Shown: positions 507 to 24,620 of the stretch, piece after piece | Layout of the letters: each line of letters opens with the position of its first letter | How positions within the stretch are numbered: position 1 is the first letter of the stretch | From: Bdellovibrionota bacterium | GTDB lineage: Bacteria > Bdellovibrionota_C > UBA2361 > JBGSMV01 | Direction of reading: 5' to 3' | Assembly (NCBI GenBank): GCA_041739995.1 | Contig: JBGSMV010000080.1 | Location: 34,738 to 98,737, forward strand | Length of the DNA stretch: 64,000 bases | Notes under the pieces: model-generated | The model's input: only the letters and a program-made list of their open reading frames with translations | The model's database searches: none | Told to the model about the DNA's origin: nothing | Made by a program: the position numbers and the translations under genes

Positions 507-1082
507 GTGATGATTCCGTATCGTCCGAATTACCTTGCTGATTCCTGTGTTCCAGTAGTCTGGATTACTGGCCTTGCGGGTGCGGGCAAGACGACCCTTG
601 CAGACCGCGTATGGGCCGAATTGCGTCCCACACTTCCAAATATTGTGAGACTCGATGGTGATGCGGTCAGAGAGATCTGGGGGGGAGAACTTGGATACAC
701 TCTCGAAGATCGCATTACGAATGCGGAGCGCCTAAGCCGCTTGGCTCTGTGCCTCCATCGGCAGGGGCTTGTAGTAGTCTGCTCGACCATGTCGCTCTAC
801 CCGCAAATTTGGGACTGGAATCGTGAGCATTTTAATTCGTATATTGAAGTGTACCTGCGCGTTAACATGGAGGTGCTTCAAGCTCGCAACAAGAAGGGGC
901 TTTACTCAACCTCAAATGCTGATGACGGACAAACAGTGGTAGGACGTGGCCAGGAATTTCATGAGCCCACCGCAGCGCACCTCACACTAGTAAACGAGAC
1001 AGTGGAAAACCTGGAATCTAATGTTATTCAAATCGTTCAGGCGATTAGGCAGAGCATGAACCTCAGGGGTCAGATATTATGA
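507..1082 (+). CDS. Adenylylsulfate-kinase-like P-loop kinase (CysC family). It may be a true APS kinase making PAPS, or a CysC-homologous nucleotide 3'-kinase such as a cytidine diphosphoramidate kinase
   Basis: Walker A GLAGAGKTTLA; LDGDAVR; DRxxNxxRL; C-terminal ARNKKGLY that resembles the CysC RDxKGLY motif. It is divergent from canonical CysC around the FTGIxSPYE region. It overlaps both neighbours, which suggests an operon. Confidence 0.65.
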   Translation: MMIPYRPNYLADSCVPVVWITGLAGAGKTTLADRVWAELRPTLPNIVRLDGDAVREIWGGELGYTLEDRITNAERLSRLALCLHRQGLVVVCSTMSLYPQIWDWNREHFNSYIEVYLRVNMEVLQARNKKGLYSTSNADDGQTVVGRGQEFHEPTAAHLTLVNETVENLESNVIQIVQAIRQSMNLRGQIL

Positions 1083-1846
1083 AACAGGGCGATTTTACAG
1101 ACTTGGCGAAGAACTACATCAATCGCCCTGGGTACTCGGCAAATGTATTGCGTGCTCTCGCAGAATACACTGGTGCGCGGAAATCTTCTCAGTTTCTCGT
1201 TGCTGACGTTGGTGCGGGAACCGGAAAGCTAACTGAGAACCTTGTCGAGCAGGAGCTCAAGGTCGTCGCTATCGAACCGAACGACGCAATGCGCGAAGAG
1301 GGCATGCGCTATACGGCTCCGCACCAAATTCCCTGGTCTAAGGGGAGTGGAGAGTCCACCGGTCTAGCTGCCACCTCGGTAAATTGGGTGTTGATGGGGT
1401 CGTCCTTTCACTGGGTCGACTTAAAGCTTGGCCTCGCTGAGTTTCACCGGGTACTAAAGAAAGGGGGTCATTTCACCGCACTTTGGAATCCGCGAGATTT
1501 GGAGCGTAGCGATCTACACCGTCGCATCGAAGAGCGTATTCATTCAATTGCCCCAAATATTTCCCGGGCCTCCTCCGGAGCCGGCAAATACACCGCCACC
1601 CTATTCGACGATCTCGTATCGACTGGACACTTTAAAGAGCCACTTTTTGTCGAGGCACGTCATGAAGTCGTGATGACGCCCGAGCGTTATCTCGGCGCAT
1701 GGCGTTCGGTCAATGATATTCAGTCACAGGCAGGGCCAGAGAAGTTCGCCGAAATTCTCATAGCGGTTGAGAAGGAAATCGCAAGTCTCAGCGAGATCGT
1801 CGTTCCGTATAAAACAAGATCATGGACGGTCCAGCGCGTCGATTGA
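1079..1846 (+). CDS. Class I SAM-dependent methyltransferase
   Basis: SAM-binding motif I VADVGAGTGKLTE, acidic motif II VVAIEPND and a Methyltransf_11-like length of 255 aa. ATGA overlap with the upstream gene. Confidence 0.7.
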   Translation: MKQGDFTDLAKNYINRPGYSANVLRALAEYTGARKSSQFLVADVGAGTGKLTENLVEQELKVVAIEPNDAMREEGMRYTAPHQIPWSKGSGESTGLAATSVNWVLMGSSFHWVDLKLGLAEFHRVLKKGGHFTALWNPRDLERSDLHRRIEERIHSIAPNISRASSGAGKYTATLFDDLVSTGHFKEPLFVEARHEVVMTPERYLGAWRSVNDIQSQAGPEKFAEILIAVEKEIASLSEIVVPYKTRSWTVQRVD

Positions 1847-1863
1847 TCGGGAGTTAGAAGTCA

Positions 1864-2592
1864 ATGAAAGGGATTGTTCTTGCCGCCGGTGAAGGCTCCC
1901 GACTCCGTCCACTCACCGACGATCGGCCCAAATGCATGGTGGAATATCGCGGGAAGCCGATATTGGACTACACCATCGAAGCCTTTCAACAGGGCGGATT
2001 AGCTGAAATTATCGTTGTCGGCGGCTATAAAGCCGAAGCGATTCAACGTTCCAGTGTTCGGAGTTATCTAAATCCACGATACGCAAGCACCAATATGGTG
2101 CACACGCTCTTCTGCGCCGAGGAGGAACTCACAGACGATATTATAGTGTCTTATGGCGACATCATTTATCATCCCGACATATTGAAAACGCTTATTGCTG
2201 ACCCCGGCATTATAGTTGTCGTGGTTGATAATCGCTGGGAGGAGCTGTGGCGACGTCGTATGGCTGATCCGCTCAGCGATGCAGAAACCATGAAGATCGA
2301 TCCTTCGGGGAATATCGTTGAGCTTGGGAAGAAACCGAATTCGTATGCGGATATACAGGGGCAGTACATAGGTCTATTCAAACTCGCGCGAAGCATCCTT
2401 CCGCAAATTCGAGATTTTTATCACTCGCTTGATCGCACGGCTCAATATGATGGAAAGAGCTTTGATCAGATGTATATGACCAGCTTCCTTCAGTTAATTG
2501 CCGATCAACTTCATCCAATTCGCGCGCTTCCTATTGAGGGAGGCTGGCTTGAGATCGATTCCGAGACCGATCTGGAGTGCCAGGCGGTTTAA
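1864..2592 (+). CDS. Sugar/phospho-substrate nucleotidyltransferase (LicC-like / CTP:phospho-X cytidylyltransferase family)
   Basis: N-terminal GIVLAAGEGSRLRPLTDDRPKCMV is the nucleotidyltransferase signature (G-x-G-x-R-L). It is 242 aa, the size of LicC-like cytidylyltransferases. Confidence 0.65.
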   Translation: MKGIVLAAGEGSRLRPLTDDRPKCMVEYRGKPILDYTIEAFQQGGLAEIIVVGGYKAEAIQRSSVRSYLNPRYASTNMVHTLFCAEEELTDDIIVSYGDIIYHPDILKTLIADPGIIVVVVDNRWEELWRRRMADPLSDAETMKIDPSGNIVELGKKPNSYADIQGQYIGLFKLARSILPQIRDFYHSLDRTAQYDGKSFDQMYMTSFLQLIADQLHPIRALPIEGGWLEIDSETDLECQAV

Positions 2593-2613: not shown

Positions 2614-4287
2614 CTATAGTGCTTTTAACACCGCGTCAATCCCTAGCCTATCGTAGTAACCCGCGATCCGTTCTGAGCCCTGCCTACTTTTTGAACCTTG
2701 AACGACTGCGTGAAAATCACTGACTGCTTCATGACCTTCTGCAGAATCTGGCGCAACGCGTAATAGCAATCCGCCTGCGGCATAACGAGCAATGCGGCTT
2801 CTCGATTGCGCCACACGACGAAGTCGATCAATCGCATATGCTTCATGGGTACGGTGCAGAAGGAGCTGCAACGCAAGATGACACTCAAGAATCGGGAGTT
2901 CGTCAACAAGCATGCAGTATTTCTGGAGCACCTTCTCAAATTCGCCAAATTGAAATTGCGGTTGCTGAAAATTACGGCGAATAGAAGAAAGCATGCTCTC
3001 GATCCAGAGATCGCGCGCCACGGTGAAAACGCTCAGATCCCACGTGAATGCGGGTATGACAGGTGCTATCGAAAGATCGTATCGAGCTTGGTGTTCTGTT
3101 CTCACCACACTTGCCACCAATGCGTAGCGGTTCAGCACACTTTGAGAATTGGCACTTCTCCACCGCTCTGCTCTTCCAGAGGTTGCTGCAGAATTTGGGT
3201 AGGCAGTCGCCTTTGCGCGTTCCGAGTTGCTCACCGCGGATTGAATAGCTTCGTCGCCTCGTTCGATCTCAAGAAACGACACTAAGCCACGCACCGCCCG
3301 TAGCGCACGATCGGGGTCCGTAAGATCCTCAAAGTAGAGGTGCATCAGATTGTCAGTGGGAACGCAGACTTCGAGAAATGTCTCTACCAAGAGCCACTCT
3401 TCAATCGTCGCCTGTCCAAAGATTCCTTCGCCGCCGTTCGTGGGAAGGTCAAGAACGTCATCCACACAAATCTCAGTCGTGTTTGATTGCAGGTTATTCT
3501 GTTTCGAAATACACACGTCACGTGGATCGCGAACGATTCGAACATGCTTCTTTCCGCTAAAGATCGCGGGCGAGAGGCTATGGGAAAACTGTGCCCCTAC
3601 ATCAACTTCGAAGGAGAAGTCCCGCCGACCACCCTGACGGACGACTATCGGCAAACAACTCGTCAGCCATTCGTGATGCTGCTCAAGCAGCCGAAAACTT
3701 CCTGCATGGAAGCGGAACATATCGTGAAAGCGTCCAAAATAGGTACATATTCCCAATTCTAGGAGCAAGTTCCATGTCTTATAAGTGCCACTGCACTCCA
3801 TGGACGAGAATTGAACCTCGCGAAGAAACGCACCATCGGCTACTCCCTCTGAGACTAAACAGATGCCATAAAGCGCCGACGAATTGAGGATAACTTTTGC
3901 CGGATGAAAGTCAGGGCGCAGTTCTATGAGTTTCTGGAGCAGAAGAGGTCCAAGATTGGGTTCGCCCGCGGAGCAAGCAGCCTGCGCCGCGTACCACAGA
4001 ATGCGCATCCCGGGGAAACCCATCTCGAGCGCCTTTATGAGATGCCCAAGTGCGACGGAAAATTCTCTCGCGCGGTAGGCGAGAACTCCAAGCCAGAATG
4101 GTCCGAATGGATCAGCGGGGTGTTGAACCGAGAAGAGTTGTGCCGCCGATCGGATCTCGGCAAGGTCTGCGTTTTCCCCTAGCTGACTATCTTCAACCGC
4201 AAAGATGCGTGAGCTTTCAACATTTCGGCTATGACGAAAGTGCTCAAGGTATTGTCCAAAGATGTCCAAACCAGACTGGTCTGTCAC
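2614..4287 (-). CDS. Sulfotransferase-domain protein with an N-terminal helical-repeat region
   Basis: VRIVRDPRDVCIS resembles the 3'-phosphate-binding RDPRD motif of sulfotransferases. LYFEDLTDPDRALRAVRGLVSFLEI matches the typical C-terminal Y-E-D-L-x-x-P...FLG sulfotransferase segment. 557 aa. Confidence 0.5.
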   Translation of the reverse strand: MTDQSGLDIFGQYLEHFRHSRNVESSRIFAVEDSQLGENADLAEIRSAAQLFSVQHPADPFGPFWLGVLAYRAREFSVALGHLIKALEMGFPGMRILWYAAQAACSAGEPNLGPLLLQKLIELRPDFHPAKVILNSSALYGICLVSEGVADGAFLREVQFSSMECSGTYKTWNLLLELGICTYFGRFHDMFRFHAGSFRLLEQHHEWLTSCLPIVVRQGGRRDFSFEVDVGAQFSHSLSPAIFSGKKHVRIVRDPRDVCISKQNNLQSNTTEICVDDVLDLPTNGGEGIFGQATIEEWLLVETFLEVCVPTDNLMHLYFEDLTDPDRALRAVRGLVSFLEIERGDEAIQSAVSNSERAKATAYPNSAATSGRAERWRSANSQSVLNRYALVASVVRTEHQARYDLSIAPVIPAFTWDLSVFTVARDLWIESMLSSIRRNFQQPQFQFGEFEKVLQKYCMLVDELPILECHLALQLLLHRTHEAYAIDRLRRVAQSRSRIARYAAGGLLLRVAPDSAEGHEAVSDFHAVVQGSKSRQGSERIAGYYDRLGIDAVLKAL

Positions 4288-4422: not shown

Positions 4423-5124
4423 TTAAGATGAAATACTCAATATCTTGATGATTTTAATGTTCCACAGCAACTGTAGACCATTCGTATTCATACGAACGCC
4501 GTCCACTGCAGCAGTCCAAGAGCGCAGCTTGTTCTCCTTGGCCGGAATATCAAATGGCATCACCTGTTCGTCTACGTCGCAGCGCCACCCCAGCTCAGCA
4601 AGCCTCGCACAGAAGAGACCGAGAGGATACTGGTTGAACCCCGTGTGCCACTCACTGCTCCCCACACGCCGGTATTTGAGGGCGACCTCGAAATCGAAGT
4701 CATTAAAAACTCCAGTGATTACTGCGAGACCGCCCGGTCGCACATGGCGCAGGATATTCAAGGCAACGGGGATGGGGTCAGTCCAATACGAGAGAAGCGA
4801 TGTCGCGGTGACAAGATCAAATTTCTCGGAAAGACTGAAGCTTTCGGCATCGCCTACTTGAAACTCGATTTTCTGCGCTTCAAACCGTTTTTTTGCGCTC
4901 GCGATTAGCTCCTCCCCAATATCAACTCCTACTTTTCTCCCCGTAGGGAATACACTCTGGGAGAGGTGTGCGAGCAGTTCCCCGCTCGCACATCCAACAT
5001 CGAGACAGGATACCCCTTTGGCCACGTCGAAATGCGCGGTGGCAATCGAACTAATCCGTTTGAAGAGATCTTTAACTTCGAAGTGCGCGTCGTCTTGAAC
5101 ATGAAAATTGGAGGGGTTTGTCAT
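4423..5124 (-). CDS. Class I SAM-dependent methyltransferase
   Basis: Motif I CLDVGCASGELLAHL. The start was moved to internal Met (MTNPSNF) because the longer N-terminal extension in the ORF track is low-complexity. Confidence 0.6.
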   Translation of the reverse strand: MTNPSNFHVQDDAHFEVKDLFKRISSIATAHFDVAKGVSCLDVGCASGELLAHLSQSVFPTGRKVGVDIGEELIASAKKRFEAQKIEFQVGDAESFSLSEKFDLVTATSLLSYWTDPIPVALNILRHVRPGGLAVITGVFNDFDFEVALKYRRVGSSEWHTGFNQYPLGLFCARLAELGWRCDVDEQVMPFDIPAKENKLRSWTAAVDGVRMNTNGLQLLWNIKIIKILSISS

Positions 5125-5325
5125 AGCGGTCCATGAACTAGTTGCTGATCCAGTCAAAGAGAGAAGACTTGGGCTGTGGGGAGCTAACCGGTTTGTACAC
5201 AACCCATGGTGCAGCTACCCAAAAATACTCATAATTTCGCGAATCCTTGGTCATTTTCGCAGACTCGAAACATAGAGAGTAGTGGTACGTTTAGTGAATA
5301 GTATCAATTAGGTACATGGATTCCG

Positions 5326-7533
5326 ATGTCTCAGACTAGAGTACTGTTCTACGTTCCCTATGGGGGCTGGACTGTCCACAACCAGGTGGAAGCCGCTATC
5401 GCTTCCGCGCTCAGGGTTCGGGGCGCCGAAGTTATGGTGGTTGGGTGCGACGGCCTATTCTCGGAACGTTGTTATATTCTTAGTGGTTCTAAAACACCCG
5501 AAGCCGACTGCGCCCATTGCACAAAAACTGGGGTAGATTTTTTTGGAGCATTTCAATTACCGCTAGTGCAACTACGCTCGGCCCTCCAAAAGGGCGACTA
5601 CGATGGGATCGATAGCTGGCTGAACGATCAGGATCCTGCGCACTTCCCCGAGCTCACTTTTGAGGAGATTCCTGTTGGTAAACTGACTTCACCAGCAGTA
5701 TGTGGGTTTCATACGATAGGTCCCACCCTGCTCCGAGAAGCCGACCCGCAGTACACGCATCGGCTTTATCTGAAATATTGGCTGCTCACCTATGCCGGAC
5801 TCAATCGAATATTCGAACAATTCAAACCAACTCACACGGTCATTTTCCACGGAGCTGGTTTCTCGCATTCAGCAGCACTTTCACTTTCGAAAAAACGTGG
5901 GGTACCGATAGTCACGCATGAGAAGGGCTGGGTACCTCGTTCCTTCCTGATGGCGATCGATGAAACCGTGATAGGACCTTATTCGCGCGCAAAGTCTTCA
6001 CGAGCCTGGCTTCCGTACCCCTTATCTGCAGAGGAGGTGAAAAAGGCAGGGGAACTCTTTACCGACTGGGAGGAAGGCAAGAATAGGGTCACCGGACGAT
6101 TCTTTTCCTATTCAACCGATCCTACTCGCCTGCGGGAGCATCTTGGAATCCCCTCCGATGCCAGAATTTTCTCCGTCTTTACCACCAGCGAGCATGAGAT
6201 CCTTTATCTGGATGAATGGGGAATCTTACATGAACAAGTTCTGATGATTGAGCGTCTCGCCGAGATATTTCGTTCGAGAAAAGAATACTTAGTTATCCGT
6301 CACCACCCAAACGTCTGTAACCCTCTTCATCCAGGTCCCGACTCAGATTACCTCGAGAGGCTGCTCGCACTTTCGCAGCGACTTCCCTCAAATGTGCGAA
6401 TGATCATGCCGTATGAGTCGGTAAATTCTTACAGCCTCCTCTGGCATAGCGACGCCACTTTCTCGACAATCTCCACCATTGGTCTTGAAGCCGTCGCTCG
6501 CGGCATTCCGAGCGCTTCGCTTTCATGTTCAAGTTTCAGCGCTTCGATGCAAATGACTCTCGAATCGCTCGAACCTTCCGACCTCGAAAGAATGGTCAAC
6601 GATCTCCTATCGACACCTCTGAGCGCCTCTCTCGAGCAAATAGCGAAGGCCTATCGCGTCCTTTTCACGCAGATGTTTAGGTTTCCCCTTACCTTTAAAA
6701 CCATTGGTGTCGACGAGAACCGGAGGCCTGAGATTAAGATTGAATCTGTAGAGCAACTTCTACCTGGTGCAGATCCGGTGATGGATCGAGTATGCGACTA
6801 TTTCCTGAGGGGAACTTCTCTGCATGAGATTCCAGGTGACAACGCGCAAAATCGTAACGAGCATGATGAACGAAACGCTCTCGCCGAGGAGCGCGAGCGC
6901 TTCGTGCAGGCACGCGCGTTAGCTCGCGGGTCAGCACAAACTCAGGCGCCGCTCCCACTTTCAATGGCCGTGGTACTCGCTCGATACACCGATGGAGAGG
7001 CTCAGCAGCCGTGGTGGCTGGGCCGCCAAAGGACTAAACAATACCGCTTCTATCCCGCACAAGTACCCTCTCACGCTGACTGGCGAGAGCAGCTGATCTC
7101 GTTACAAAGAGTTATTATGGAACGCGAGGAAGCGCTTGTACTACCGGCACACCCGTCTTGCGAGTATGATGAATGCTTGATGCAATCGTCAAGCGAAGCC
7201 ATAAGCTGCTCCGAGCGTCACATTGACGCGGTGCTTTGGGGAGCATGGCTGTATGATAAGAATTCAAAGTTGATTAGCGGGGCCTATACTCCCTACCACA
7301 AAGTGAGTTCGTGGGAGGAACTCCTTAAGCATATGCCACAACTTGGAACGGTTACTGGGCAGCTAGGCCTGGGAGTATTCAGACGTGATTTTTTAGTGAG
7401 ACTCCTCTCTGAGATGGGCGCTGCGAAGAACGAGCAGGTTGCTGCCTTTGAACTATTTAGACTGCTCTCGGGAGATGCTGTACTTCGGCTCGAACAACCA
7501 ATGGTGTTTTATAAACAGGATCTCCAGGGATGA
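5326..7533 (+). CDS. Large 735-aa hypothetical protein. A central region resembles the C-terminal GT-B-like half of capsule-polysaccharide (KpsC/KpsS, beta-Kdo transferase) family proteins, making it a candidate CMP-ulosonic-acid transferase
   Basis: Long ORF in the operon with ATGA overlap to the downstream SDR. Segments HHPNV...PYESVNSYSLLWHSDATFSTISTIGLEAVARGIP resemble the Capsule_synth/TagF-like donor-binding half. The N-terminus VLFYVPYGGW...GAEV is Rossmann-like. The family assignment is from memory only. Confidence 0.4.
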   Translation: MSQTRVLFYVPYGGWTVHNQVEAAIASALRVRGAEVMVVGCDGLFSERCYILSGSKTPEADCAHCTKTGVDFFGAFQLPLVQLRSALQKGDYDGIDSWLNDQDPAHFPELTFEEIPVGKLTSPAVCGFHTIGPTLLREADPQYTHRLYLKYWLLTYAGLNRIFEQFKPTHTVIFHGAGFSHSAALSLSKKRGVPIVTHEKGWVPRSFLMAIDETVIGPYSRAKSSRAWLPYPLSAEEVKKAGELFTDWEEGKNRVTGRFFSYSTDPTRLREHLGIPSDARIFSVFTTSEHEILYLDEWGILHEQVLMIERLAEIFRSRKEYLVIRHHPNVCNPLHPGPDSDYLERLLALSQRLPSNVRMIMPYESVNSYSLLWHSDATFSTISTIGLEAVARGIPSASLSCSSFSASMQMTLESLEPSDLERMVNDLLSTPLSASLEQIAKAYRVLFTQMFRFPLTFKTIGVDENRRPEIKIESVEQLLPGADPVMDRVCDYFLRGTSLHEIPGDNAQNRNEHDERNALAEERERFVQARALARGSAQTQAPLPLSMAVVLARYTDGEAQQPWWLGRQRTKQYRFYPAQVPSHADWREQLISLQRVIMEREEALVLPAHPSCEYDECLMQSSSEAISCSERHIDAVLWGAWLYDKNSKLISGAYTPYHKVSSWEELLKHMPQLGTVTGQLGLGVFRRDFLVRLLSEMGAAKNEQVAAFELFRLLSGDAVLRLEQPMVFYKQDLQG

Positions 7534-8357
7534 AAACCGGTAGCGCCACCGCAATGTTTGATCTGACCGGAAAGGTGATCGTGGTCACCGGTGCTGCAGG
7601 TATCCTCGGCGGTCATTTTAGTCGTGCACTTGCGGGCAGTGGCGGCACCCTCGCACTTCTTGATCAACAACGACTCGAAGTCGAGGAACTCGCAAAATCG
7701 ATTGCCCTTGAGTTCGGTGTTGATGCGATTGGACTCCATTGTGACGTGACTGATCCGAAGTCTGTCATACAAGCCGTAGATCAGGTCGAAGACCGATTTG
7801 GTCACATCGATGTCTTACATAACAATGCCGCAACAAAGGGGAAGGATCCCCGTGCCTTCTTTGATCCTTTTGAGGACTTCTCTCTCCGTACTTGGCGCGA
7901 GATTATGTCGGTCAACATCGATGGGATGTTTTTAATGGCTCAGGCCGTCGGTCGAAAAATGAAAGCGAGAGGCAACGGTGGAAGTATAATTCAAACCGCG
8001 TCAATATATGGAGTCGTTGCGCCAGACCAGAGAATCTACGAAGGCTCGAACTACCTCGGAGGCACCATTAATACTCCTGCGGTATATTCAACATCAAAGG
8101 CAGCGGTCATTGGCCTTTCGCAACATCTTTCAACCTACTGGGGCCCACTTGGAATTCGAGTGAACACTCTCACCCCTGGCGGCGTGCAAAGCGGCCAAAA
8201 TGGTGAATTTGTGCGCAAGTATAGCGAACGAGTCCCGCTCGGACGCATGGCAACACCCGATGACCTTAGTGGCGCACTGGTATACCTCGCATCCGACGCT
8301 TCTCGCTATGTAACGGGGCAGAATTTGGTGGTCGATGGAGGCTTCACCGTTTGGTGA
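7530..8357 (+). CDS. Short-chain dehydrogenase/reductase (SDR) family oxidoreductase
   Basis: Cofactor-binding VIVVTGAAGILG; catalytic YSTSKAAVIGL (YxxxK); 275 aa. Confidence 0.8.
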   Translation: MKTGSATAMFDLTGKVIVVTGAAGILGGHFSRALAGSGGTLALLDQQRLEVEELAKSIALEFGVDAIGLHCDVTDPKSVIQAVDQVEDRFGHIDVLHNNAATKGKDPRAFFDPFEDFSLRTWREIMSVNIDGMFLMAQAVGRKMKARGNGGSIIQTASIYGVVAPDQRIYEGSNYLGGTINTPAVYSTSKAAVIGLSQHLSTYWGPLGIRVNTLTPGGVQSGQNGEFVRKYSERVPLGRMATPDDLSGALVYLASDASRYVTGQNLVVDGGFTVW

Positions 8358-17998: not shown

Positions 17999-18090
17999 AG
18001 AAACACTACTCCTCGCCACTTTTAGATGCGGCGCGAGGCAGTATCGCCGCAAGGCGTTGTTGGCCCTAACTAGCTATAATATCTATATGT

Positions 18091-19023
18091 TTAGGTGAAC
18101 GCGCAGCCTATTCCTGCTCCTGGATACCAGTGAGATTCTGGGCGCTCAGGAAAGAAGAGGAACTTCCTGCCCGTGCGGGAGGCGAACTGATAGAGACTCT
18201 CTGATGAGTGGGCGTTGTCACCAAGGACAATGGCGTGGTCAGTGAGCATAGATCTGATGGTGTCATATTCTCGTGCCTCGTACTCGGCCGAGTGATCGCT
18301 ATCATTGATAAACAGGTCGATTCGCTGATTTAGAGACTTGAGCGATTCGATAGAATCCCCGTACACGATCTTCCCTACCTCACTGTATTTGCCCTGAAGG
18401 AGGTATCCTGCCTGAGGATTGATATCGGTCCCAATGTAGACTCCCGGCGCACCTTCAGCCGCGTTTCGAAGCAGGGCAGAAGCCAAGACGACGGATCCTA
18501 ATCCTTGCTCGACTCCTGTTTCGACGATTACTCTGGGCTTCATGGCGCGCGCAATCGCGTACCATCCCAGGCGACGTCCAAAATCGAACTGTGGATCAAT
18601 CCCCATGTACACACCGGGTTGATTGACGAGCGTTGAGATATGCTTTCGAATCTCAGAATCTTGATCGAGCTCGGCAATGTACTGATGGACTCTCTCTGGG
18701 GAGGTCCGCGCAATAACTGCCACAAAGGCAGCTAAATAGTTCTTGTTTGTCTGATTAATCGCGTAGGTAAAGTTTGAGCCTTCTTGCGAACGAAACAGCC
18801 AAGAAAAGATATCTTTCAGCGAAGGCTCGAAATAGGTCATGGCGACATGGAGGCGCGCTTCGAACTCTTGTGCCTGGCGGTCGGAGCACGTCAGCCCTTT
18901 ATTGGTGGCCTCCGAAGCACAATGCACCAGGATCTTCTCGAACGCCTTTTGAAAAAGGCCTAAAGCGTGCCCAGCCGTCGGTGAGACTGAGAACTCTGTA
19001 GATTGAGCGGCTTGATTGGTCAT
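18091..19023 (-). CDS. Class I SAM-dependent methyltransferase of the TylF/CmcI-like (macrocin-O-methyltransferase-like) type
   Basis: IVETGVEQGLGSVVLA (motif I-like), DLFINDSDHS and IVLGDN resemble TylF/CmcI-family sugar O-methyltransferases. 310 aa. Confidence 0.5.
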   Translation of the reverse strand: MTNQAAQSTEFSVSPTAGHALGLFQKAFEKILVHCASEATNKGLTCSDRQAQEFEARLHVAMTYFEPSLKDIFSWLFRSQEGSNFTYAINQTNKNYLAAFVAVIARTSPERVHQYIAELDQDSEIRKHISTLVNQPGVYMGIDPQFDFGRRLGWYAIARAMKPRVIVETGVEQGLGSVVLASALLRNAAEGAPGVYIGTDINPQAGYLLQGKYSEVGKIVYGDSIESLKSLNQRIDLFINDSDHSAEYEAREYDTIRSMLTDHAIVLGDNAHSSESLYQFASRTGRKFLFFPERPESHWYPGAGIGCAFT

Positions 19024-19072
19024 AGCAATTTCCTAGGGGTCCTCGATAGGGTCAAAAGGTTTAGATGACTCA

Positions 19073-20242
19073 TCAAGATGAGAGTTTCACCGAACTAGGA
19101 AGGTTAATAATTCTGCCCACCGCCTGCTCAGTGGTAGAGAGGTCCATTCGAGGGCAGGCCGCGTACATGGGTAGCGTATGCAGAGGCTCCCACGCAGGTC
19201 GAACAAAGATATTCTGGGCAACAGCCTCGTTTATAAGGGAATCACGGAGACCTATATTTGGCTCATCAAGAAGCGCCGTATTCAACCAGTAGTTGCTTTT
19301 GGCGTACGAGGGCTCTTGAAAAATTGTGAGGCCCGAGACACCCCGAAACAACTCCAGGTAGCGTTGAGCGAGCGTCCGCTTACGACCGAGAAAGCCAGGA
19401 AGCTGCTCCAATTGAGCCACTCCTAGCGCGGCGTTGATGTTGGGCAAGCGGTAATTGTATCCAACTTCATCATGGGCATACCGCCAGGCATGCGGAACTC
19501 GAGCCGTTGTCGTGATATGCTTAAGGCGTGTGGCCAGCCGCTCGTCATTTGTCAGTATTGCTCCGCCGCCACCCGTCGTAATGGTTTTATTCCCATTGAA
19601 GCTCAATGCCGTCATTACTCCGTGGCTTCCGCTATGCCGCCCTCTATAGAGTGAACCAAGAGACTCAGCAGCATCCTCTATCAACGGAATTCTATATTTT
19701 TCGCTCACGGCTTTTAGGGCGTCCAGATCGACGGGGTGGCCGAAGCAGTGCATCACTATCAACGCTGCAATTCGTCGCCCAGACTGGCGATTACGAAATC
19801 CTTCCTTCTCGAGCGTCCCAACGCGATCGAGGTATGCGTCAAGTTTCTGTGCATCGATACCCAAGGATCCCATTTCAATATCTGCGAAATGACACTGAGC
19901 GCCGCAGTACGCAACGCTGTTAGCTGTCGCGATAAAGGTCAACGAGGGAAGCAGTACTTCGTCGAGGGAGGTAACCCCAAGCACTCTTAGGATCGCGTGC
20001 AGTGCCGACGTCCCGTTTGCCACTGCAACTCCAAACTTGGTTCCCGCATATGAGGCGAGCTCCCTCTCATAACGGTCAACGAACGGCCCCACCGAGGAAA
20101 CCCACCCAGTATCTAGACACTCTTTCACGTAGCGCCATTCATTTCCCTCAAAACACGGCTCGTGAAGCGCATATAAAGTTTGTGGATCGGGACAAACCTC
20201 ACGCAAGGCTTCGACAAATCTTTGAGGCAGGCTGTCACTCAT
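19073..20242 (-). CDS. DegT/DnrJ/EryC1/StrS-family PLP-dependent sugar aminotransferase (LegC/PglE-like)
   Basis: VAVANGTSALH, ALSFNGNKTITTGGGGAIL (the PLP-Lys region) and the N-terminal YALHEPCFEGNEWRYV are typical of this family. 389 aa. Confidence 0.85.
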   Translation of the reverse strand: MSDSLPQRFVEALREVCPDPQTLYALHEPCFEGNEWRYVKECLDTGWVSSVGPFVDRYERELASYAGTKFGVAVANGTSALHAILRVLGVTSLDEVLLPSLTFIATANSVAYCGAQCHFADIEMGSLGIDAQKLDAYLDRVGTLEKEGFRNRQSGRRIAALIVMHCFGHPVDLDALKAVSEKYRIPLIEDAAESLGSLYRGRHSGSHGVMTALSFNGNKTITTGGGGAILTNDERLATRLKHITTTARVPHAWRYAHDEVGYNYRLPNINAALGVAQLEQLPGFLGRKRTLAQRYLELFRGVSGLTIFQEPSYAKSNYWLNTALLDEPNIGLRDSLINEAVAQNIFVRPAWEPLHTLPMYAACPRMDLSTTEQAVGRIINLPSSVKLSS

Positions 20243-20331
20243 GTGCTAAGTTTATATTGTGTCCCATCAATCCCGAAAGTAATCTTTGCAGGCTTTGGTT
20301 CCGAAGCGCCCCTATCAGCCGTTAGAAAAGA

Positions 20332-21351
20332 TTGGTTTCTATGAGTTTGAAAAATAAAAAGGTCCTTGTCACCGGTGCAGGCGGCTTCATTGGTAGCCAC
20401 TTAACTGAGGCCTTAGTCGCTCAAGGAGCCTCAGTGAAAGCCTTTGTTCACTATAACGCTCTTGATTCAAGAGGATGGCTCGACTCCATCGACTCCAAGA
20501 TTGCGCCACACATCGAGGTAATCTCAAGTGACATTCGTGACCCTACGGCTGTACGCAACGCCGCAAAAGGCATGAATGTGGTGTTTCACCTCGCGGCACT
20601 AATCGGCATTCCCTTTTCATACGAGGCGCCGGATCTCTACGTGGATACAAATGTGCGCGGAACGCTCAATGTGCTGCAAGCAGGTCGAGAACTGGGTACC
20701 GAGCGCCTAGTGGTCACCTCAACAAGCGAGGTATACGGCTCAGCTCAATCGGTGCCTATGACCGAAGCGCACCCGCTGCACCCACAATCGCCCTACGCGG
20801 CAAGCAAGGTCGGCGCGGATCAACTAGCGCTTTCATTCCATCGCTCCTTCGCTACACCAGTGACTGTCGTTCGCCCATTCAACACTTACGGGCCACGCCA
20901 ATCTTCGAGAGCCGTTCTGCCCACCGTCATTAGCCAAATCGTAAAGGGAGCAAAGACGCTAAAACTTGGCGCCCTTGCTCCCACGAGGGATTTCTCCTTT
21001 GTAAGTGACACCACCAGCGCCTTTATCACCGCAGCCACCAACGAACGCGCCATCGGAGAGGTGATTCATTTTGGGAGCGGATTTGAAATTTCCGTGGGCG
21101 ATGCGGCGCGTCTTATCGCTCGCCTCATGGACTGTGAAGTTCAGATTGAGGAAGAAAATGTCAGAGTGCGCCCTTCTACCAGTGAAGTTGACAGACTTTT
21201 CGCCGATATCGGTAAGGCTCGCGAACTTTTGGGATGGCAACCAGCTTTTTCTGGGCTCGAAGGCTTCGGACGTGGCCTTAAAGAGACCATCACTTGGTTT
21301 AGCAATCCAGCGAACACTCAACGATACAGAGCTAATCACTACGCGATATAG
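20332..21351 (+). CDS. NAD-dependent epimerase/dehydratase (extended SDR, nucleotide-sugar 4,6-dehydratase/4-epimerase family)
   Basis: KVLVTGAGGFIGSHL Rossmann motif; catalytic YAASKVGAD (YxxxK); 339 aa. Confidence 0.8.
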   Translation: MVSMSLKNKKVLVTGAGGFIGSHLTEALVAQGASVKAFVHYNALDSRGWLDSIDSKIAPHIEVISSDIRDPTAVRNAAKGMNVVFHLAALIGIPFSYEAPDLYVDTNVRGTLNVLQAGRELGTERLVVTSTSEVYGSAQSVPMTEAHPLHPQSPYAASKVGADQLALSFHRSFATPVTVVRPFNTYGPRQSSRAVLPTVISQIVKGAKTLKLGALAPTRDFSFVSDTTSAFITAATNERAIGEVIHFGSGFEISVGDAARLIARLMDCEVQIEEENVRVRPSTSEVDRLFADIGKARELLGWQPAFSGLEGFGRGLKETITWFSNPANTQRYRANHYAI

Positions 21352-21362: not shown

Positions 21363-22343
21363 CTAGGAGAAATGGGGGTGCCCCTGCCTCGCTTTTGCCT
21401 CGTAGGCTTGAGACATTTCGTCAAGAACGTTCAATGTTTTCTTACTCAATCCCTTCGCAAGCGCTTCTCGTCGATCGGTACGGCCCGAGGAAGGCTCTTT
21501 GCCCGGTAATTTTTCCCTCTTCTTAATCATCTCCATCGAAGGGAGGACAGGCTGCTGTAAGAACTTGGCCAAACGATCAACCTCAGCATCAGGAGAAACA
21601 ACCAAATCTTCGTATCGCAATTGAAAGACTTTCTCCTTCTCTGATGCCGCAAGCCGGGTCCATCGATCTTCCGAACGCTGAGCAATGGTGGCGATCGACC
21701 GAACAACTCGCTCCTCGGCCGAAACATCTGCATAGTCCTCAGCCCAATCTAAGGCGAACCAAGGCACCAACCCCTTCCCCTTTTTGAACGGAATGACGAA
21801 GCCCTTAGGGTCCGTTCCCCAGCGCCCACCCCAACCACGCTGCAACCAAGAAAAACAAAGATCCAAGGGGTGCCGATCTAAACGCACGACTCGAAGCTCC
21901 GGAAGGAAAGAGAAGAACAGATCGATGAAGGGGAGAACTTCGTGCATCACATAGGGGAGATAAGGAGGGTCCGATTGAAGCTTTGCCATGACCTCGGTGT
22001 CGTCCGAGCTTAAGCAGCGCTGGAGGTAGTCAGCAAAACGAGGCGACTGAACAACCGAAGATTTGTCCGATAGTCTGAAGTTCAGACCTCGACCAACCAT
22101 TAAATCATACGCGGTGTTGTCGAACTGAACTTGCAACAGAGAAGTCGCCGTTTCCCTTGAAATTTTTCCGAACGACTCAAGGAACGGGACATGCTCAAAA
22201 ATACTGTGGTATTGAAAGTGCTCAACATTCGAGATACCTGACAGCACGTTGGACACGAGAAACTTTCCGGAGCGAGTAACTCCTTCTACGAATAATATGC
22301 GCTCCACCAACCGAGCGCGATCTCCTAGCGGATAAGATTTCAT
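21363..22343 (-). CDS. Sulfotransferase family protein
   Basis: GVTRSGKFLV (5'-PSB-like), RLDRHPLD (3'-PB-like RxxRxPxD) and LRYEDLVVSPDAEVDRLAKFL (the typical C-terminal YEDL...FLG segment). Confidence 0.55.
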   Translation of the reverse strand: MKSYPLGDRARLVERILFVEGVTRSGKFLVSNVLSGISNVEHFQYHSIFEHVPFLESFGKISRETATSLLQVQFDNTAYDLMVGRGLNFRLSDKSSVVQSPRFADYLQRCLSSDDTEVMAKLQSDPPYLPYVMHEVLPFIDLFFSFLPELRVVRLDRHPLDLCFSWLQRGWGGRWGTDPKGFVIPFKKGKGLVPWFALDWAEDYADVSAEERVVRSIATIAQRSEDRWTRLAASEKEKVFQLRYEDLVVSPDAEVDRLAKFLQQPVLPSMEMIKKREKLPGKEPSSGRTDRREALAKGLSKKTLNVLDEMSQAYEAKARQGHPHFS

Positions 22344-22352
22344 AGATTCTAA

Positions 22353-24620
22353 CTATTCAGTAAAGACTTTGCGGCCAATAGCTATTTCGGAAAGCAAATA
22401 ATTGGAAATTTCAGGCCTCACCAACCATTCAGGCGGTCGCTCTCCTTTCAAGAGACTGGAACGCAGCTCGGTGCCACTAAGCGCCATAAACGATTCCTCG
22501 GCAGAGGTTCGTTCGCCATAAGCACCTTTCGCTGCCAAATACCCCACTTCGTCAAAAAATATTGGCTTAATGTCAAGATCAGGAAACTCTTCGAATATGC
22601 GCCGTGCTGCGTCCTTTGCGTAGAACGACCCCACTCCCGCATGGTCCCTTCCCACAATGAAGTGAGAACACCCAAAATTCTGCCGACAGAGCGCCGTGAA
22701 TACTGCCTCTCTTGGTCCTGCAAATCGCGAATATGAAGCAAAAGTGGAGAATAAGACCTTGTTCTCTGGGTAGTGCGCCCGCAAAAGAATCGAGTACGCA
22801 CGAATAATTGCCTCTGCTTCAAAGTCGCCCGCCTTTCGTTGGCCCACCACTGGATGGATAAATAGGCCATCACACTCCCCACGTATCATCGCCTCGTGAT
22901 GAAGATACTCATGGGAGCGATGAGGTACGTTGCGCGAATGAAATCCTACTACTCGAGTCCAACCGCGACTCTCGAAAATCTTGCGGACTTGAAGCGGTGT
23001 AAGTTCGAAATTCTTTTGCTTCGCAGGAGGTCTACTAAAAAGTGATACTCTGCCGGCCACCGAAAAGCTTCCCCCGCCGAGTATTCGAGCAACCCCCGGG
23101 TGTTTAGAATCAACGGTGCCAAACCAATCACGACAGAGGTCCTCTACCTTAAGTGGGAAGACCTCTGAAACATGCAACAGCCCAAACGGGACTTGATCTC
23201 CCTCCGATACCAACTTAATCACTGGGGCGCTGCCAAAACTCCGTGCCCGCGCTTCCTCTACCTGAAGAAGGATCGGCATCGGCCAAATCTTCCCACCCGG
23301 AAGACGCTTATTTGCCAGAACCGAAGCGAGCTCTTCGGGCCCCATGAACCCTTGAAGTGGACTATAGGTGCCGATAGCGAGCTGCTCAGCGTCCATCGCT
23401 TGCTCGATACGAAGCTCCAACGCCGGAAGTGACGCCAAATAATCCTGGGGAGGAGGTCTCTGTAAAAGTCTATCGACGAGCTGTCCTCCGTGTGGACGAA
23501 TAAGGCTGGCACCTACCGTGGGGCTAGTTAAAAATTTCGAGCGCTCGAGAACTTGTATCAGTTCTTGAGTGCCTCCTCTCATTTCATCAGTCGAACCAAG
23601 GAAGAACAGAGTCTGCTTCCCTACGGTTTGAATTAAATTGATAGCCTCAATCGGGTGCTTCCCGACCGCTGTCTCAGCTGCCAAGACCAAGCCATCTGCG
23701 CCGTCGACAAGCGTATTAACGATATCATTGATCTCGGCCCGACTGGGCTTGAGACTGGCCATCATAGTGTCTAAGAAATTGGTGGCAACAAATACGGGTA
23801 TGCGCTTACCGTTTGCTCGATGGATGATAATCTTTTGCGCAAACGCTACCCTTTCAAGAGGGACTTCTCGGCTAAGATCTCCTCGATCAATCAGGATGCC
23901 ATCGGAGCAATCAAGTATTGAATCTAGGTTCTCTACCGCTCGCTTGGTCTCAATTTTACTGATTACAGTTGCCTCAGGGTAGAGCTCTCGCACTTCCTGA
24001 ACGTCTTCACGAGAGTTGACAAAGGAAAGGTTGAGAAGCGTAATTCCGTGTCTACGAGAAATTTCTATCGCTGCTCTATCCTTCTCACTCAGCGCCGGCA
24101 GTTGAAACTGCTGGTTCTCTACAGAGACCGCTTTATTGTTACCAACGTCTCCTCCCGTAATTACAGTGCACTCCACGTAACCAGCACCACTCAGGTCCGT
24201 GAGGCTGTCGACTCGTAGAATAGCAGTGTCAAAGTCAACGAATATAAGGTCACCAACTCTCAGACTTGCGACCGCTTCCGCCGGCCTCAGAAACAACTGA
24301 CTTGAGCTGCACTTGACGGCCTTACGGTATAGGCGCAGCGAATCTCCAGTGCGAAGAGCTACCTTGGCGACCCCTAGGTCCCCGGTACGAATCTGGCACC
24401 CTTCGGTGTCAACAATGATAGGTGTAGAGATCTCGTTTCTTATCGCGCGGATCGTTGTTTCGAGATCTTCGATCTTGGTATGTGACAAATTGATACGCAC
24501 ATAATCCACATCCCTAGCCGCGATTTTGCGAAGCATTTCCGCTGAAGACGTAGAGGGTCCCAAAGTGACGATGAGCTGCATTGCTCCGCCCTTCTCGCTC
24601 CGAACCGGTAACTTCGCCAT
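22353..24620 (-). CDS. sat: Fusion protein with an N-terminal pyruvate-kinase-like barrel domain and a C-terminal sulfate adenylyltransferase (ATP sulfurylase)
   Basis: The N-terminal ~330 aa align colinearly with pyruvate kinase (LIVTLGPSTSS...RINLSH; IIVDTEG; ISKIETKRAVENLD...ILIDRGDL; VATNFLDTMM...PSRAE). The C-terminal ~380 aa carry the ATP-sulfurylase motifs VVGFHSRNVPHRSHE (QTRN-HxxH-like) and GRDHAGVG. It is a single uninterrupted ORF. I preferred the start at MAKLP (AAGGAG 6 nt upstream), and the alternative MQLIV at 24581 also has a GGAG. Confidence 0.75.
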   Translation of the reverse strand: MAKLPVRSEKGGAMQLIVTLGPSTSSAEMLRKIAARDVDYVRINLSHTKIEDLETTIRAIRNEISTPIIVDTEGCQIRTGDLGVAKVALRTGDSLRLYRKAVKCSSSQLFLRPAEAVASLRVGDLIFVDFDTAILRVDSLTDLSGAGYVECTVITGGDVGNNKAVSVENQQFQLPALSEKDRAAIEISRRHGITLLNLSFVNSREDVQEVRELYPEATVISKIETKRAVENLDSILDCSDGILIDRGDLSREVPLERVAFAQKIIIHRANGKRIPVFVATNFLDTMMASLKPSRAEINDIVNTLVDGADGLVLAAETAVGKHPIEAINLIQTVGKQTLFFLGSTDEMRGGTQELIQVLERSKFLTSPTVGASLIRPHGGQLVDRLLQRPPPQDYLASLPALELRIEQAMDAEQLAIGTYSPLQGFMGPEELASVLANKRLPGGKIWPMPILLQVEEARARSFGSAPVIKLVSEGDQVPFGLLHVSEVFPLKVEDLCRDWFGTVDSKHPGVARILGGGSFSVAGRVSLFSRPPAKQKNFELTPLQVRKIFESRGWTRVVGFHSRNVPHRSHEYLHHEAMIRGECDGLFIHPVVGQRKAGDFEAEAIIRAYSILLRAHYPENKVLFSTFASYSRFAGPREAVFTALCRQNFGCSHFIVGRDHAGVGSFYAKDAARRIFEEFPDLDIKPIFFDEVGYLAAKGAYGERTSAEESFMALSGTELRSSLLKGERPPEWLVRPEISNYLLSEIAIGRKVFTE

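Follow-up and report, generated by a model that had tools for sequence, protein, structure and literature searches.

The 64-kb stretch of DNA analysed here (64,000 nucleotides, referred to as the window) probably carries a legionaminic-acid-type nonulosonate cluster together with two independent tailoring modules that would rely on chemically analogous 3'-phosphorylated nucleotide donors (Table 1). Module B (positions 21363-24620, minus strand), to judge from its genes a real sulfation module, pairs a pyruvate-kinase/ATP-sulfurylase fusion (PK-Sat) with a 326-aa sulfotransferase (ST326), and module A (20-5202) looks like a CDP-phosphoramidate cassette of the Campylobacter Cj1415-Cj1418 type. 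All four ORFs singled out in the initial annotation, namely the fusion, a kinase and two sulfotransferase-like proteins, are present at the coordinates given there, and the nonulosonate genes said to co-localise with them are found between and beside them. These encode SDR, HisF/HisH-like, WbuX, UDP-GlcNAc 2-epimerase-type, formyltransferase, CMP-synthetase-type, CBS-nucleotidyltransferase, methyltransferase, DegT aminotransferase and 4,6-dehydratase proteins.

Table 1. Features of the window, with strand and supporting match
Position	Strand	Feature	Match or remark
20..505	+	Cj1418-like protein, C-terminal end (L-glutamine-kinase-like, PPDK_N/PEP-utilizers)	truncated by window start
507..1082	+	APS-kinase-fold kinase, Cj1415-like, candidate cytidine diphosphoramidate 3'-kinase	PRK05541
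1079..1846	+	SAM methyltransferase, conserved fifth cassette gene	Methyltransf_11/25
1864..2592	+	Cj1416-like nucleotidyltransferase, candidate CTP:phosphoglutamine cytidylyltransferase	NTP_transf_3
2614..4287	-	557-aa protein, central sulfotransferase-superfamily domain	Sulfotransfer_1
4423..5202	-	second SAM methyltransferase	Methyltransf_31/11/25
5326-7533		uncharacterised 735-aa protein	no assigned family
7530..21351	.	legionaminic-acid-type nonulosonate biosynthesis genes	Pfam and NCBIfam matches
21363..22343	-	326-aa sulfotransferase, ST326 family	Sulfotransfer_3, Sulfotransfer_1
22353..24620	-	755-aa fusion: pyruvate kinase A+B domains, PUA_2, ATP sulfurylase	Pfam
24717..26090	-	Na_H_Exchanger-family transporter gene adjoining PK-Sat	two Pfam half-matches
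25984..26991	-	GFO_IDH_MocA oxidoreductase	Pfam
28195..29496	+	NeuB-family nonulosonate synthase	NeuB E=8.6e-82 plus SAF

With respect to module B, the N-terminal half of the fusion, left unnamed in the initial annotation, is a pyruvate-kinase barrel (230.8 bits, E=2.9e-68) without the C-terminal regulatory domain, and is joined to PUA_2 (123.5 bits) and ATP-sulfurylase (239.8 bits, E=2.6e-71) domains; the gene starts with an ATG at 24620 that is preceded by an AAGGAG ribosome-binding site. The pyruvate-kinase catalytic residues and the RNxxHxxH and GRDHAG motifs of the ATP-sulfurylase (Sat) domain are invariant across 25 members of the fusion family, and comparison of the Sat domain with solved ATP sulfurylases gave E=1e-84. 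It scores just under the NCBI curated cut-offs (362 vs 387 and 298 vs 323), and the Gln of its FQxRN motif is replaced by His. PK-Sat is present in at least 539 species genomes, and the best 120 database matches all have the fusion architecture, several with an extra C-terminal APS kinase. Among 84 comparison fusion loci, an APS kinase is fused in 13, encoded within 3 kb in 39 and absent from the flank in 32; the PK-Sat-linked kinases pass the apsK model TIGR00455 at 162-192 bits, and CysQ-like Inositol_P genes are frequent neighbours. No paper describing an N-terminal pyruvate-kinase A+B domain on an ATP sulfurylase was found in a literature search, and the fusion is, within the literature searched, an undescribed architecture.

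The ST326 gene begins 9 nt after the end of the fusion gene, and its product exceeds the Pfam cut-offs of both Sulfotransfer_3 (36.7 bits) and Sulfotransfer_1 (28 bits). It is 40-41% identical to the sulfotransferases located downstream of PK-Sat/APS kinase in two comparison loci (L002, L003), and orthologues were found in a further 13 loci spread over several phyla, in every case next to PK-Sat and inside nonulosonate clusters, with CMP-synthetase-type (11/13), GFO_IDH_MocA (10/13), WbuX (9/13) and NeuB (9/13) genes as neighbours; in L002-L004, L011, L029 and others, the surrounding nonulosonate gene set is that of the window. The recurrence of this pairing in 13 loci of unrelated lineages argues for glycan tailoring and not for sulfur assimilation, in line with the dedicated, non-assimilatory role that had been proposed for a sulfate-activation and sulfotransferase pair within the nonulosonate locus. 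In the family alignment the RxGKF loop, H134, P159 and W166 are invariant and R157 is nearly so, and although similarity to any solved enzyme is very low (best E=3.3e-5), H134 and RxPxDxxxS align with the SHLP and RNPRDVVVS motifs of SULT2B1. ST326 carries the catalytic His and PAPS-binding motifs, and the conservation of RxPxDxxxS implies 3'-phosphate recognition.

According to the mechanism proposed for module B, the ATP-sulfurylase domain would convert sulfate and ATP to APS, and the fused pyruvate kinase would most likely regenerate ATP from ADP and PEP, which might pull the PAPS-forming reactions and clear ADP. The gene for the APS kinase, which normally lies between those of module B or is fused to them, most likely resides in another part of the genome, and ST326 would, as its conserved synteny suggests, transfer sulfate to a sugar of a nonulosonate-containing glycan or its precursor. 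A sulfated glycan is plausible; a sulfated nonulosonic acid is only a possibility, suggested by gene neighbourhood. The adjoining transporter gene, homologues of which adjoin PK-Sat in L011 and L029, is probably part of module B; it has an in-frame TAG at 25449-25451 with a single reading frame on both sides, and its half-matches cover positions 4-149 and 156-369 of the Na_H_Exchanger profile.

In module A, the window start falls inside the cassette and cuts its first visible gene, the product of which matches PEP-utilizers (E=1.4e-13) and positions 643-786 of 789 of NCBIfam PRK05849 (E=9e-58) and shares 50-58% identity with the C-terminal ends of proteins of ~800 aa in cassette loci L005-L007. 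A single base separates this gene (stop at 505) from that of the kinase (GTG at 507), which in turn overlaps at its end the methyltransferase gene located ahead of the cytidylyltransferase-like gene. A further 15 cassette loci have orthologues of this methyltransferase inside or next to the cassette, while the second methyltransferase matched only itself and had no orthologue in other cassette loci. The nucleotidyltransferase is 48-55% identical to those of the L005-L007 cassettes, its best solved relative being the CTP:phosphocholine cytidylyltransferase 1jyk. Likeness to Cj1415-Cj1418, a four-enzyme pathway to CDP-phosphoramidate 3'-phosphate (PMC11800397), was judged by domain architecture, gene order and third-party names. 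A donor of the 3'-phospho-CDP-amidate type would be the joint product of the glutamine-kinase-like enzyme, the cytidylyltransferase and the APS-kinase-fold kinase, and the conserved methyltransferase might methylate the transferred group (candidate phosphoramidate O-methylation).

The kinase had been taken for the CysC-like APS kinase of the sulfation pathway. Its APS-kinase fold (Pfam APS_kinase, E=2.6e-28) stood up, as did the ATP-sulfurylase domain of the fusion, but it fails the curated apsK model TIGR00455 (103.3 bits, cut-off 138.7) and passes PRK05541 (161.9 bits, cut-off 127). Leave-one-out profiles gave 237 bits for the cassette type vs 91 bits for the Sat-linked type, and identity is 48-54% to homologues in Cj1415-1418-type cassettes vs 26-29% to Sat-linked kinases. 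In a neighbour-joining tree without bootstrap, with genomic context as labels, it falls within a clade in which every member adjoins glutamine-kinase-like and cytidylyltransferase genes; its closest homologues adjoin genes for ~800-aa PPDK_N/PEP-utilizer, GATase/Peptidase_C26, NTP_transferase and methyltransferase proteins, and many homologues carry the JGI name 'cytidine diphosphoramidate kinase'. On the basis of cut-off, profiles, tree and synteny, the assignment as a Sat-linked APS kinase was rejected in favour of the phosphoramidate pathway, an outcome that the initial annotation had itself named as contrary to its reading. A small clade sister to the cassette kinases (L099, L100, L105, L106) adjoins separate Sat and pyruvate-kinase genes and also passes PRK05541, so that kinases of the broader subfamily can serve sulfate activation; dual use of the window kinase, sulfate activation included, is possible.

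The 557-aa protein consists of an N-terminal TPR-like region, a sulfotransferase domain (about residues 155-400) and a helical C-terminus. Its Sulfotransfer_1 score (22.0 bits, E=1.2e-4) equals the cut-off, and 19 of 22 aligned sequences from its 45 distant relatives match the same family; a profile of these relatives matches solved cytosolic sulfotransferases (SULTs) at E=2.4e-14, the alignment placing RDPRDxxxS opposite RNPRDxxxS and SGRxxxW(R/K) opposite RKGxxGDWK of the SULTs, and hhalign relates its family to that of ST326 at 96.7%. The protein belongs to the sulfotransferase superfamily and keeps the catalytic His as well as the residues that bind the 3'-phosphate. The sulfotransferase identity proposed for both candidates was upheld, and the motifs quoted for them were recovered: the 557-aa protein has VRDPRDVCIS and YFEDL...FL, and ST326 has LDRHPLDLCFS and YEDL...FL. 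Among cassette loci with several kb of flank, sulfotransferase-like genes directly adjoin the cassette in nine (L005, by motif only, L007, L093, L095, L096, L101, L104, L144 and the window), and neither a sulfurylase nor an apsK-type kinase was found in the comparison loci of this kind. Because of this cassette neighbourhood the protein is not confidently assignable to sulfation; it lies where sulfotransferase-like genes recur by cassettes, so either donor is conceivable, and it could use PAPS or 3'-phospho-CDP-amidate. As a sulfotransferase-fold protein it would be the best candidate transferase for the PAPS-like donor of module A. Two structure predictions were of low confidence (pLDDT 41 and 35). 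As the 64 kb lack a canonical APS kinase, a CysQ and a Cj1417-type amidohydrolase, both pathways are incomplete as seen.

The single dedicated PAPS pathway of the initial annotation, in which the fusion makes APS, the module A kinase converts it to PAPS for use by both sulfotransferase-like proteins in sulfating the nonulosonate glycan, is unlikely. It would account for the intact P-loop and DGD motif of the kinase, the only one of its fold within the window, for the Sat-adjacent sister clade and for the 3'-phosphate-binding residues kept, as had been anticipated, by both sulfotransferase-like proteins. However, the Sat-linked kinases pass the curated model that this kinase fails, its substrate region differs (CSTMSLY vs VPxISPF; W102 for R, A73 for N), the other genes of its cassette have no role in sulfate activation, and it is encoded 21 kb away from the sulfurylase, while in 52 of the 84 loci a genuine partner is either fused to it or encoded at most 3 kb away. 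Possible, if doubtful, is a variant in which both sulfotransferase-like proteins depend on PAPS and serve two sulfation sites, the phosphoramidate being moved by another protein such as the 735-aa one. The 557-aa protein has relatives that match Sulfotransfer_1, a PAPS-dependent family, and one of them, from a locus without the cassette, is a fusion with a GT1 glycosyltransferase; the Campylobacter MeOPN transferases Cj1421/Cj1422 were first annotated as glycosyltransferases (PMC9561416), and the 735-aa protein belongs to no assigned family. Yet none of the other cassette loci compared encodes a homologue of it, and at least three sulfotransferase-like subfamilies directly adjoin cassettes in loci without sulfate activation, which makes chance a difficult explanation.

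That module B is a defective remnant after loss of its APS kinase, or is PAPS-free with ST326 using APS directly, is decidedly improbable. The short gap between fusion and sulfotransferase leaves no room for an APS kinase gene, the neighbouring transporter gene is interrupted, and four other ST326-positive loci lack an APS kinase within 10 kb; but both genes are intact and keep every family-invariant residue, the conserved RxPxDxxxS speaks for a 3'-phosphorylated donor, and with 32 of 84 fusion loci lacking an adjacent kinase, a distant kinase gene is common. There is very little to suggest that the fusion has a role in energy metabolism or general sulfur assimilation and lies in a glycan locus by chance: its Sat domain is indeed closest to enzymes of general sulfate metabolism from archaea and Thermus, but across phyla the fusion recurs with sulfotransferase, CysQ-like phosphatase and nonulosonate genes as neighbours, and, as noted initially for cysH, cysD/N and sulfite reductase, no PAPS reductase, CysD/N or sulfite reductase domain occurs in any scanned ORF of the 64-kb window.

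The reading as two independent tailoring modules can be set against known systems. The MeOPN genes of C. jejuni include the methyltransferases Cj1419/1420 and the transferases Cj1421/1422. Cj1415 is a cytidine diphosphoramidate kinase, Cj1416 a cytidylyltransferase, Cj1417 an amidohydrolase and Cj1418 an L-glutamine kinase (PMC11800397). As in this system, a surface-glycan locus brings together an APS-kinase-fold kinase, a PPDK_N/PEP-utilizer protein (~800 aa), an NTP-transferase and a SAM methyltransferase, and a class-I glutamine-amidotransferase-type hydrolase is found in loci related to the window; the visible window differs in lacking a Cj1417-type gene, in its gene order, in its setting within the nonulosonate cluster of an uncultured non-Campylobacter organism and in a candidate transferase with a sulfotransferase fold. 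With the bifunctional PAPS synthases (Aquifex 2gks, human PAPSS1/2) the fusion shares the ATP-sulfurylase domain, a PUA-like N-domain, the RNxxHxxH/GRDHAG motifs and, in 13 of 84 related loci, a C-terminal APS kinase; unlike them, it has an N-terminal pyruvate-kinase A+B domain without regulatory C-domain and His for the motif Gln, and its window copy has no kinase domain for APS. The PAPS-dependent carbohydrate sulfotransferases also include the vertebrate sialate sulfotransferases WSCD1/2. Like Sulfotransfer_1/Sulfotransfer_3 enzymes (SULT2B1, CurM ST), the sulfotransferases of the window possess a 5'-phosphosulfate loop, the RxPxDxxxS 3'-phosphate motif, a catalytic His and YEDL...FL, whereas ST326, in contrast to known carbohydrate and cytosolic sulfotransferases, forms a family of its own that is tied to PK-Sat and nonulosonate genes.

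The only ORF with an APS-kinase fold in the 64-kb window, which had been interpreted in the initial annotation as a CysC-like kinase of a PAPS pathway, belongs to a phosphoramidate-type gene cassette, the alternative that this annotation had itself named. Although its core has the APS-kinase fold, with a GLAGAGKTT P-loop and an LDGDAVR motif, and although it matches Pfam APS_kinase (E = 2.6e-28) and solved APS kinases (E = 8.6e-21), a role as the APS kinase of the sulfation genes is ruled against by curated models, profiles, residues, tree and gene neighbours. In particular, the canonical APS kinases fused to or located near the pyruvate kinase/ATP sulfurylase fusion (PK-Sat) in the comparison loci L002, L003 and L011 pass the apsK model TIGR00455 (162-192 bits, cut-off 138.7 bits) and fail PRK05541 (93-117 bits, cut-off 127 bits), whereas the window kinase fails the former (103.3 bits) and passes the latter (161.9 bits), as do its relatives in the cassette loci L005-L007 (103-133 and 159-169 bits, respectively). 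The Sat-linked kinases of L002 and L003 share 59% identity with each other but 26-29% with the window kinase, which reaches 237 bits with a cassette-type profile built without it versus 91 bits with a Sat-linked profile. The substrate-region residues of the Sat-linked kinases (F of LGFS, N of ENxRR, I-S-P and the following R) are missing, these positions being occupied by Y64, A73 (for Asn), CSTMSLY at 92-98 (for ISP) and W102 (for Arg), and at nearly all discriminating columns the window kinase has the consensus of the cassette clade.

A neighbour-joining tree calculated from 134 kinase domains places it with L005-L007 in a clade in which every member with an informative context is cassette-linked, and all PK-Sat-linked kinases fall into the other major clade. 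A broad cassette-kinase profile also picks up a small Sat-adjacent sister clade (L099, L100, L105, L106), which likewise passes PRK05541 and is set apart by the tree and the NCBIfam scores. These four loci hold an unfused form of the pairing, with the PRK05541-type kinase gene ahead of a Sat-like and a pyruvate-kinase-like ORF. The window kinase also lies 21 kb from the sulfurylase with cassette genes on its flanks, whereas in 52 of 84 loci the genuine partner is either part of the fusion or no more than 3 kb away, and the 9 nt between the stop of PK-Sat and the start of the neighbouring sulfotransferase gene leave no room for a kinase between the two. Labels such as 'adenylyl-sulfate kinase' on PRK05541-type proteins should not count as evidence for PAPS synthesis.

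The cassette consists of the C-terminus of a PRK05849 protein (E = 9e-58), the kinase, a methyltransferase and an NTP_transf_3 protein, where the PRK05849 ORF ends one base before the kinase and the methyltransferase ORF overlaps it. The cassette neighbours are 48-58% identical to their counterparts in homologous cassettes, and the closest homologues of the kinase (48-57% identity) adjoin genes for an approximately 800-aa PPDK_N/PEP-utilizer protein, a GATase/Peptidase_C26 protein, an NTP-transferase and a methyltransferase. Homologues with 48-54% identity reside in complete cassettes. By its clustering with glutamine-kinase-like and cytidylyltransferase-like genes the window kinase is a candidate cytidine diphosphoramidate kinase (Cj1415 type); a putative orthology to Cj1415 itself is supported only by the JGI name 'cytidine diphosphoramidate kinase' on many homologues with 45-48% identity. 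The methyltransferase is conserved in another 15 cassette loci, which is consistent with an O-methyl phosphoramidate as the product. The window, whose start falls inside the cassette, encodes no Cj1417-type hydrolase. A HisH-like amidotransferase considered for this role shows no similarity to the cassette GATases even at E = 1 and is moreover paired with HisF-like and WbuX genes. In eight metagenome loci (L098, L104, L107, L108, L109, L115, L119 and L126) the kinase is fused to the N-terminus of a glutamine-kinase-like protein, and in two of these (L104, L126) no Cj1417-type hydrolase lies between this fusion and the cytidylyltransferase.

The sulfurylase, in turn, is part of a fusion protein in which a complete pyruvate-kinase barrel (230.8 bits, PF00224 positions 5-328 of 328) is directly followed by PUA_2 (123.5 bits) and ATP-sulfurylase (239.8 bits) domains, with no match to the C-terminal regulatory domain PK_C in the Pfam scan. 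Across 25 aligned fusion proteins R42, N44, S46, D71, T72, K222, E224, D248 and T280, which we take to be equivalent to catalytic residues of rabbit pyruvate kinase, are invariant, as are the sulfurylase motifs RNxxHxxH and GRDHAG, indicating that both halves are under selection as enzymes. The Sat domain matches the solved structures 8a8d and 1v47 with E = 1e-84 and scores below the curated NCBIfam cut-offs (PRK04149, 362.4 vs 387; TIGR00339, 298.2 vs 323). The Gln of the FQxRN motif, found in the solved ATP sulfurylases 8a8d, 1v47 and 2gks, is replaced by His in the window protein and in 25 of 25 aligned fusion proteins.

The best 120 database matches to the fusion all combine pyruvate kinase, PUA_2 and ATP sulfurylase (43-54% identity), several with an added C-terminal APS kinase, and a scan of one genome per species yielded at least 539 carriers, among them DPANN archaea, CPR bacteria, Chloroflexota, Gemmatimonadota, Omnitrophota, Planctomycetota, Acidobacteriota and Proteobacteria. 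Of the 84 PK-Sat loci compared, 13 encode an APS kinase as part of the fusion, 39 have one at a distance of up to 3 kb and 32 show none in the flank; CysQ-like Inositol_P genes are common neighbours. A fusion with APS kinase is also encoded by a cultivable carrier, [Flexibacter] sp. ATCC 35103 (L079). The pyruvate kinase domain would regenerate ATP from the ADP that APS kinase releases, and a pairing of the two activities is supported by the triple fusions as well as by the separate adjacent kinase, Sat and pyruvate kinase genes of L099, L100, L105 and L106. ATP regeneration is also used in laboratory PAPS synthesis, which the fusion resembles. Mostly in DPANN-type archaeal loci, PPDK/PEP synthase-like ORFs of roughly 800-1000 aa are found a few kb from PK-Sat; these might connect sulfate activation with the metabolism of PPi or PEP. 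In the window, PK-Sat is neighboured by a Na_H_Exchanger-family gene with an in-frame TAG. Homologues of this transporter also adjoin PK-Sat in L011 and L029, both of gammaproteobacteria, so the gene may be part of the sulfation module (e.g., for ion or sulfate uptake).

Next to PK-Sat lies the gene of a 326-aa sulfotransferase, which passes both Sulfotransfer_3 (36.7 bits, cut-off 27) and Sulfotransfer_1 (28 bits, cut-off 22) and is 40-41% identical to the sulfotransferases of the PK-Sat nonulosonate loci L002 and L003. In L002-L004, PK-Sat, APS kinase and a 323-aa sulfotransferase follow each other in this order within nonulosonate clusters. Orthologues of the 326-aa protein (family ST326) were found in 13 loci, in all of which PK-Sat adjoins, and the flanks hold genes of the CMP-synthetase type (11 of 13), a GFO oxidoreductase (10), WbuX (9) and NeuB (9). 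Invariant in the 13 orthologues are an R24-x-G26-K27-F28 loop, H134, P159 and W166, and nearly so R157; H134 and the RxPxDxxxS motif align to the catalytic His of SHLP and to the 3'-phosphate motif RNPRDVVVS of SULT2B1. These data support the view that PK-Sat and ST326 form a conserved sulfation module tied to nonulosonate glycans as putative acceptors. The recurrence of the pair among nonulosonate genes argues, as had been proposed, for dedicated sulfation rather than sulfur assimilation, and the ORFs scanned across the 64 kb contain no domain of reductive sulfur assimilation, in agreement with the initial annotation. A promoter and terminator scan of 20-29 kb performed no better than on shuffled sequence.

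The second protein proposed as a sulfotransferase, of 557 aa, lies just at the Sulfotransfer_1 cut-off (22.0 bits). A word-based search for homologues retrieved only the protein itself, and an exhaustive HMMER search retrieved 45 relatives, of which 22 were aligned; 19 of these match Sulfotransfer_1. The profile of this family hits solved cytosolic sulfotransferases with E = 2.4e-14 and, by hhalign, ST326 with 96.7% probability and with the candidate catalytic histidines aligned. The family has an invariant R253 and near-invariant S261, H236 and G167, and its segments RDPRDxxxS and SGRxxxW(R/K) correspond in the alignment to both 3'-phosphate-binding motifs of solved sulfotransferases; a loss of PAPS-binding residues, the objection raised initially against a sulfotransferase role, is thus not seen. 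Single-sequence AlphaFold models of the 557-aa and 326-aa proteins had a pLDDT of 41 and 35, respectively.

The gene context of the 557-aa protein favours a cytidine-based candidate donor: the gene adjoins the cassette on the opposite strand, and sulfotransferase-superfamily genes of at least three subfamilies lie directly beside cassettes in L007, L093, L095, L096, L101, L104, L144 and the window, as well as, by motif only, in L005, with neither a sulfurylase nor an apsK-type kinase encoded in these eight comparison loci. The gene neighbourhoods of the two best relatives of the 557-aa protein gave no further indication. Since the cassette product is, like PAPS, a 3'-phosphorylated nucleotide-activated anion, we judge this fold to be about equally likely to transfer phosphoramidate and to act in ordinary sulfation. 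A 735-aa protein encoded between cassette and nonulosonate genes has no match in Pfam, NCBIfam or PDB and no homologue in the fetched comparison loci; it could be a glycan-specific transferase.

ORF listing as well as Pfam and NCBIfam scans confirmed all genes named in the initial annotation at their positions (see table). The NeuB domain begins only at residue 102 of its ORF (GTG start); probably the start is set too far upstream, the alternative being an unrecognised N-terminal extension. Of three co-directional ORFs within the nonulosonate cluster, two could not be assigned to a family, and none has a homologue in other PK-Sat loci.

Coordinates of the features discussed, as window positions or, where a locus is named, as positions in that comparison locus
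Feature	Locus	Position	Strand	Remarks
CDP-amidate cassette (Campylobacter Cj1415-Cj1418 type)	window	20-5202		
Cassette kinase	window	507-1082	+	
557-aa sulfotransferase-like protein	window	2614-4287	-	
735-aa protein	window	5326-7533	+	
Legionaminic-acid-type nonulosonate genes	window	between cassette and PK-Sat module		SDR, HisF/HisH-like, WbuX, 2-epimerase type, formyltransferase; CMP-synthetase type, CBS-nucleotidyltransferase, DegT, 4,6-dehydratase
HisH-like amidotransferase	window	9293-9970		
Three co-directional ORFs	window	13632-15807	+	322 aa (BFD-like [2Fe-2S] domain); 259 aa and 148 aa, no family assigned
326-aa sulfotransferase (ST326)	window	21363-22343	-	
PK-Sat	window	22353-24620	-	755 aa
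His-for-Gln site	window	about 22950-22990		motif GFHSRNVPHRSHE in Sat domain; H561 in fusion alignment
Na_H_Exchanger-family gene	window	24717-26090	-	TAG at 25449-25451, giving two same-frame ORFs
NeuB	window	28195-29496	+	ORF as listed 433 aa
Two neighbouring aldehyde-dehydrogenase ORFs	window	37472-39879	-	4-nt overlap; 500 aa (full length) and 302 aa (first half of domain only)
Unfused kinase, Sat-like, pyruvate-kinase-like ORFs	L099	5991-9087		
Unfused kinase, Sat-like, pyruvate-kinase-like ORFs	L100	119-3181		
Unfused kinase, Sat-like, pyruvate-kinase-like ORFs	L105	591-3164		
Unfused kinase, Sat-like, pyruvate-kinase-like ORFs	L106	9995-13036		
PPDK/PEP synthase-like ORF	L012	4065-7028		
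PPDK/PEP synthase-like ORF	L013	5552-8452		
PPDK/PEP synthase-like ORF	L025	4642-7530		
PPDK/PEP synthase-like ORF	L033	352-3333		
PPDK/PEP synthase-like ORF	L042	17559-20483		
PPDK/PEP synthase-like ORF	L071	6189-8543		

Taken together, a tentative reading, which we hold to be possible but rather doubtful as a whole, is that the cassette-adjoining sulfotransferase-fold proteins, including the 557-aa protein, are phosphoramidate transferases, which would have arisen by recruitment of a PAPS-dependent fold for 3'-phospho-CDP-amidate, a donor resembling PAPS. One and the same nonulosonate-containing glycan would then carry both sulfate and O-methyl phosphoramidate, and the sulfate would be supplied by a hitherto undescribed PEP-driven pyruvate-kinase/ATP-sulfurylase machine for PAPS synthesis with a wide distribution among CPR bacteria, DPANN archaea and numerous further phyla.

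According to chemical surveys, extracellular polymers of microbes contain sulfate alongside sialic-acid-like sugars; the sulfotransferases behind the co-occurring sialylation and sulfation are unknown, and mining with reference enzymes gives few matches (PMC10483923). For the sulfation ST326 and PK-Sat provide concrete, testable candidate genes that recur across phyla. Likewise, the transfer of the phosphoramidate group was still to be elucidated according to a 2025 paper (PMC12409886), and the presence of cassettes in many lineages, often with a sulfotransferase-fold neighbour, suggests how it might proceed. The PK-Sat fusion is present in hundreds of genomes, yet no description of it was found in the searched literature, nor one of the ST326 family being tied to nonulosonate clusters, of sulfated prokaryotic nonulosonates, or of the recurrent pairing of a sulfotransferase fold with the CDP-amidate cassette.

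Glycan sulfation from PAPS is a known kind of system, as is the MeOPN pathway. In Campylobacter jejuni, the Cj1415-Cj1418 pathway makes CDP-phosphoramidate 3'-phosphate (PMC11800397), and the window gene set matches this pathway. Although described as specific to Campylobacter (PMC9561416), the phosphoramidate cassette was found here across many environmental lineages, accompanied by a conserved methyltransferase and often by a neighbour of the sulfotransferase fold.
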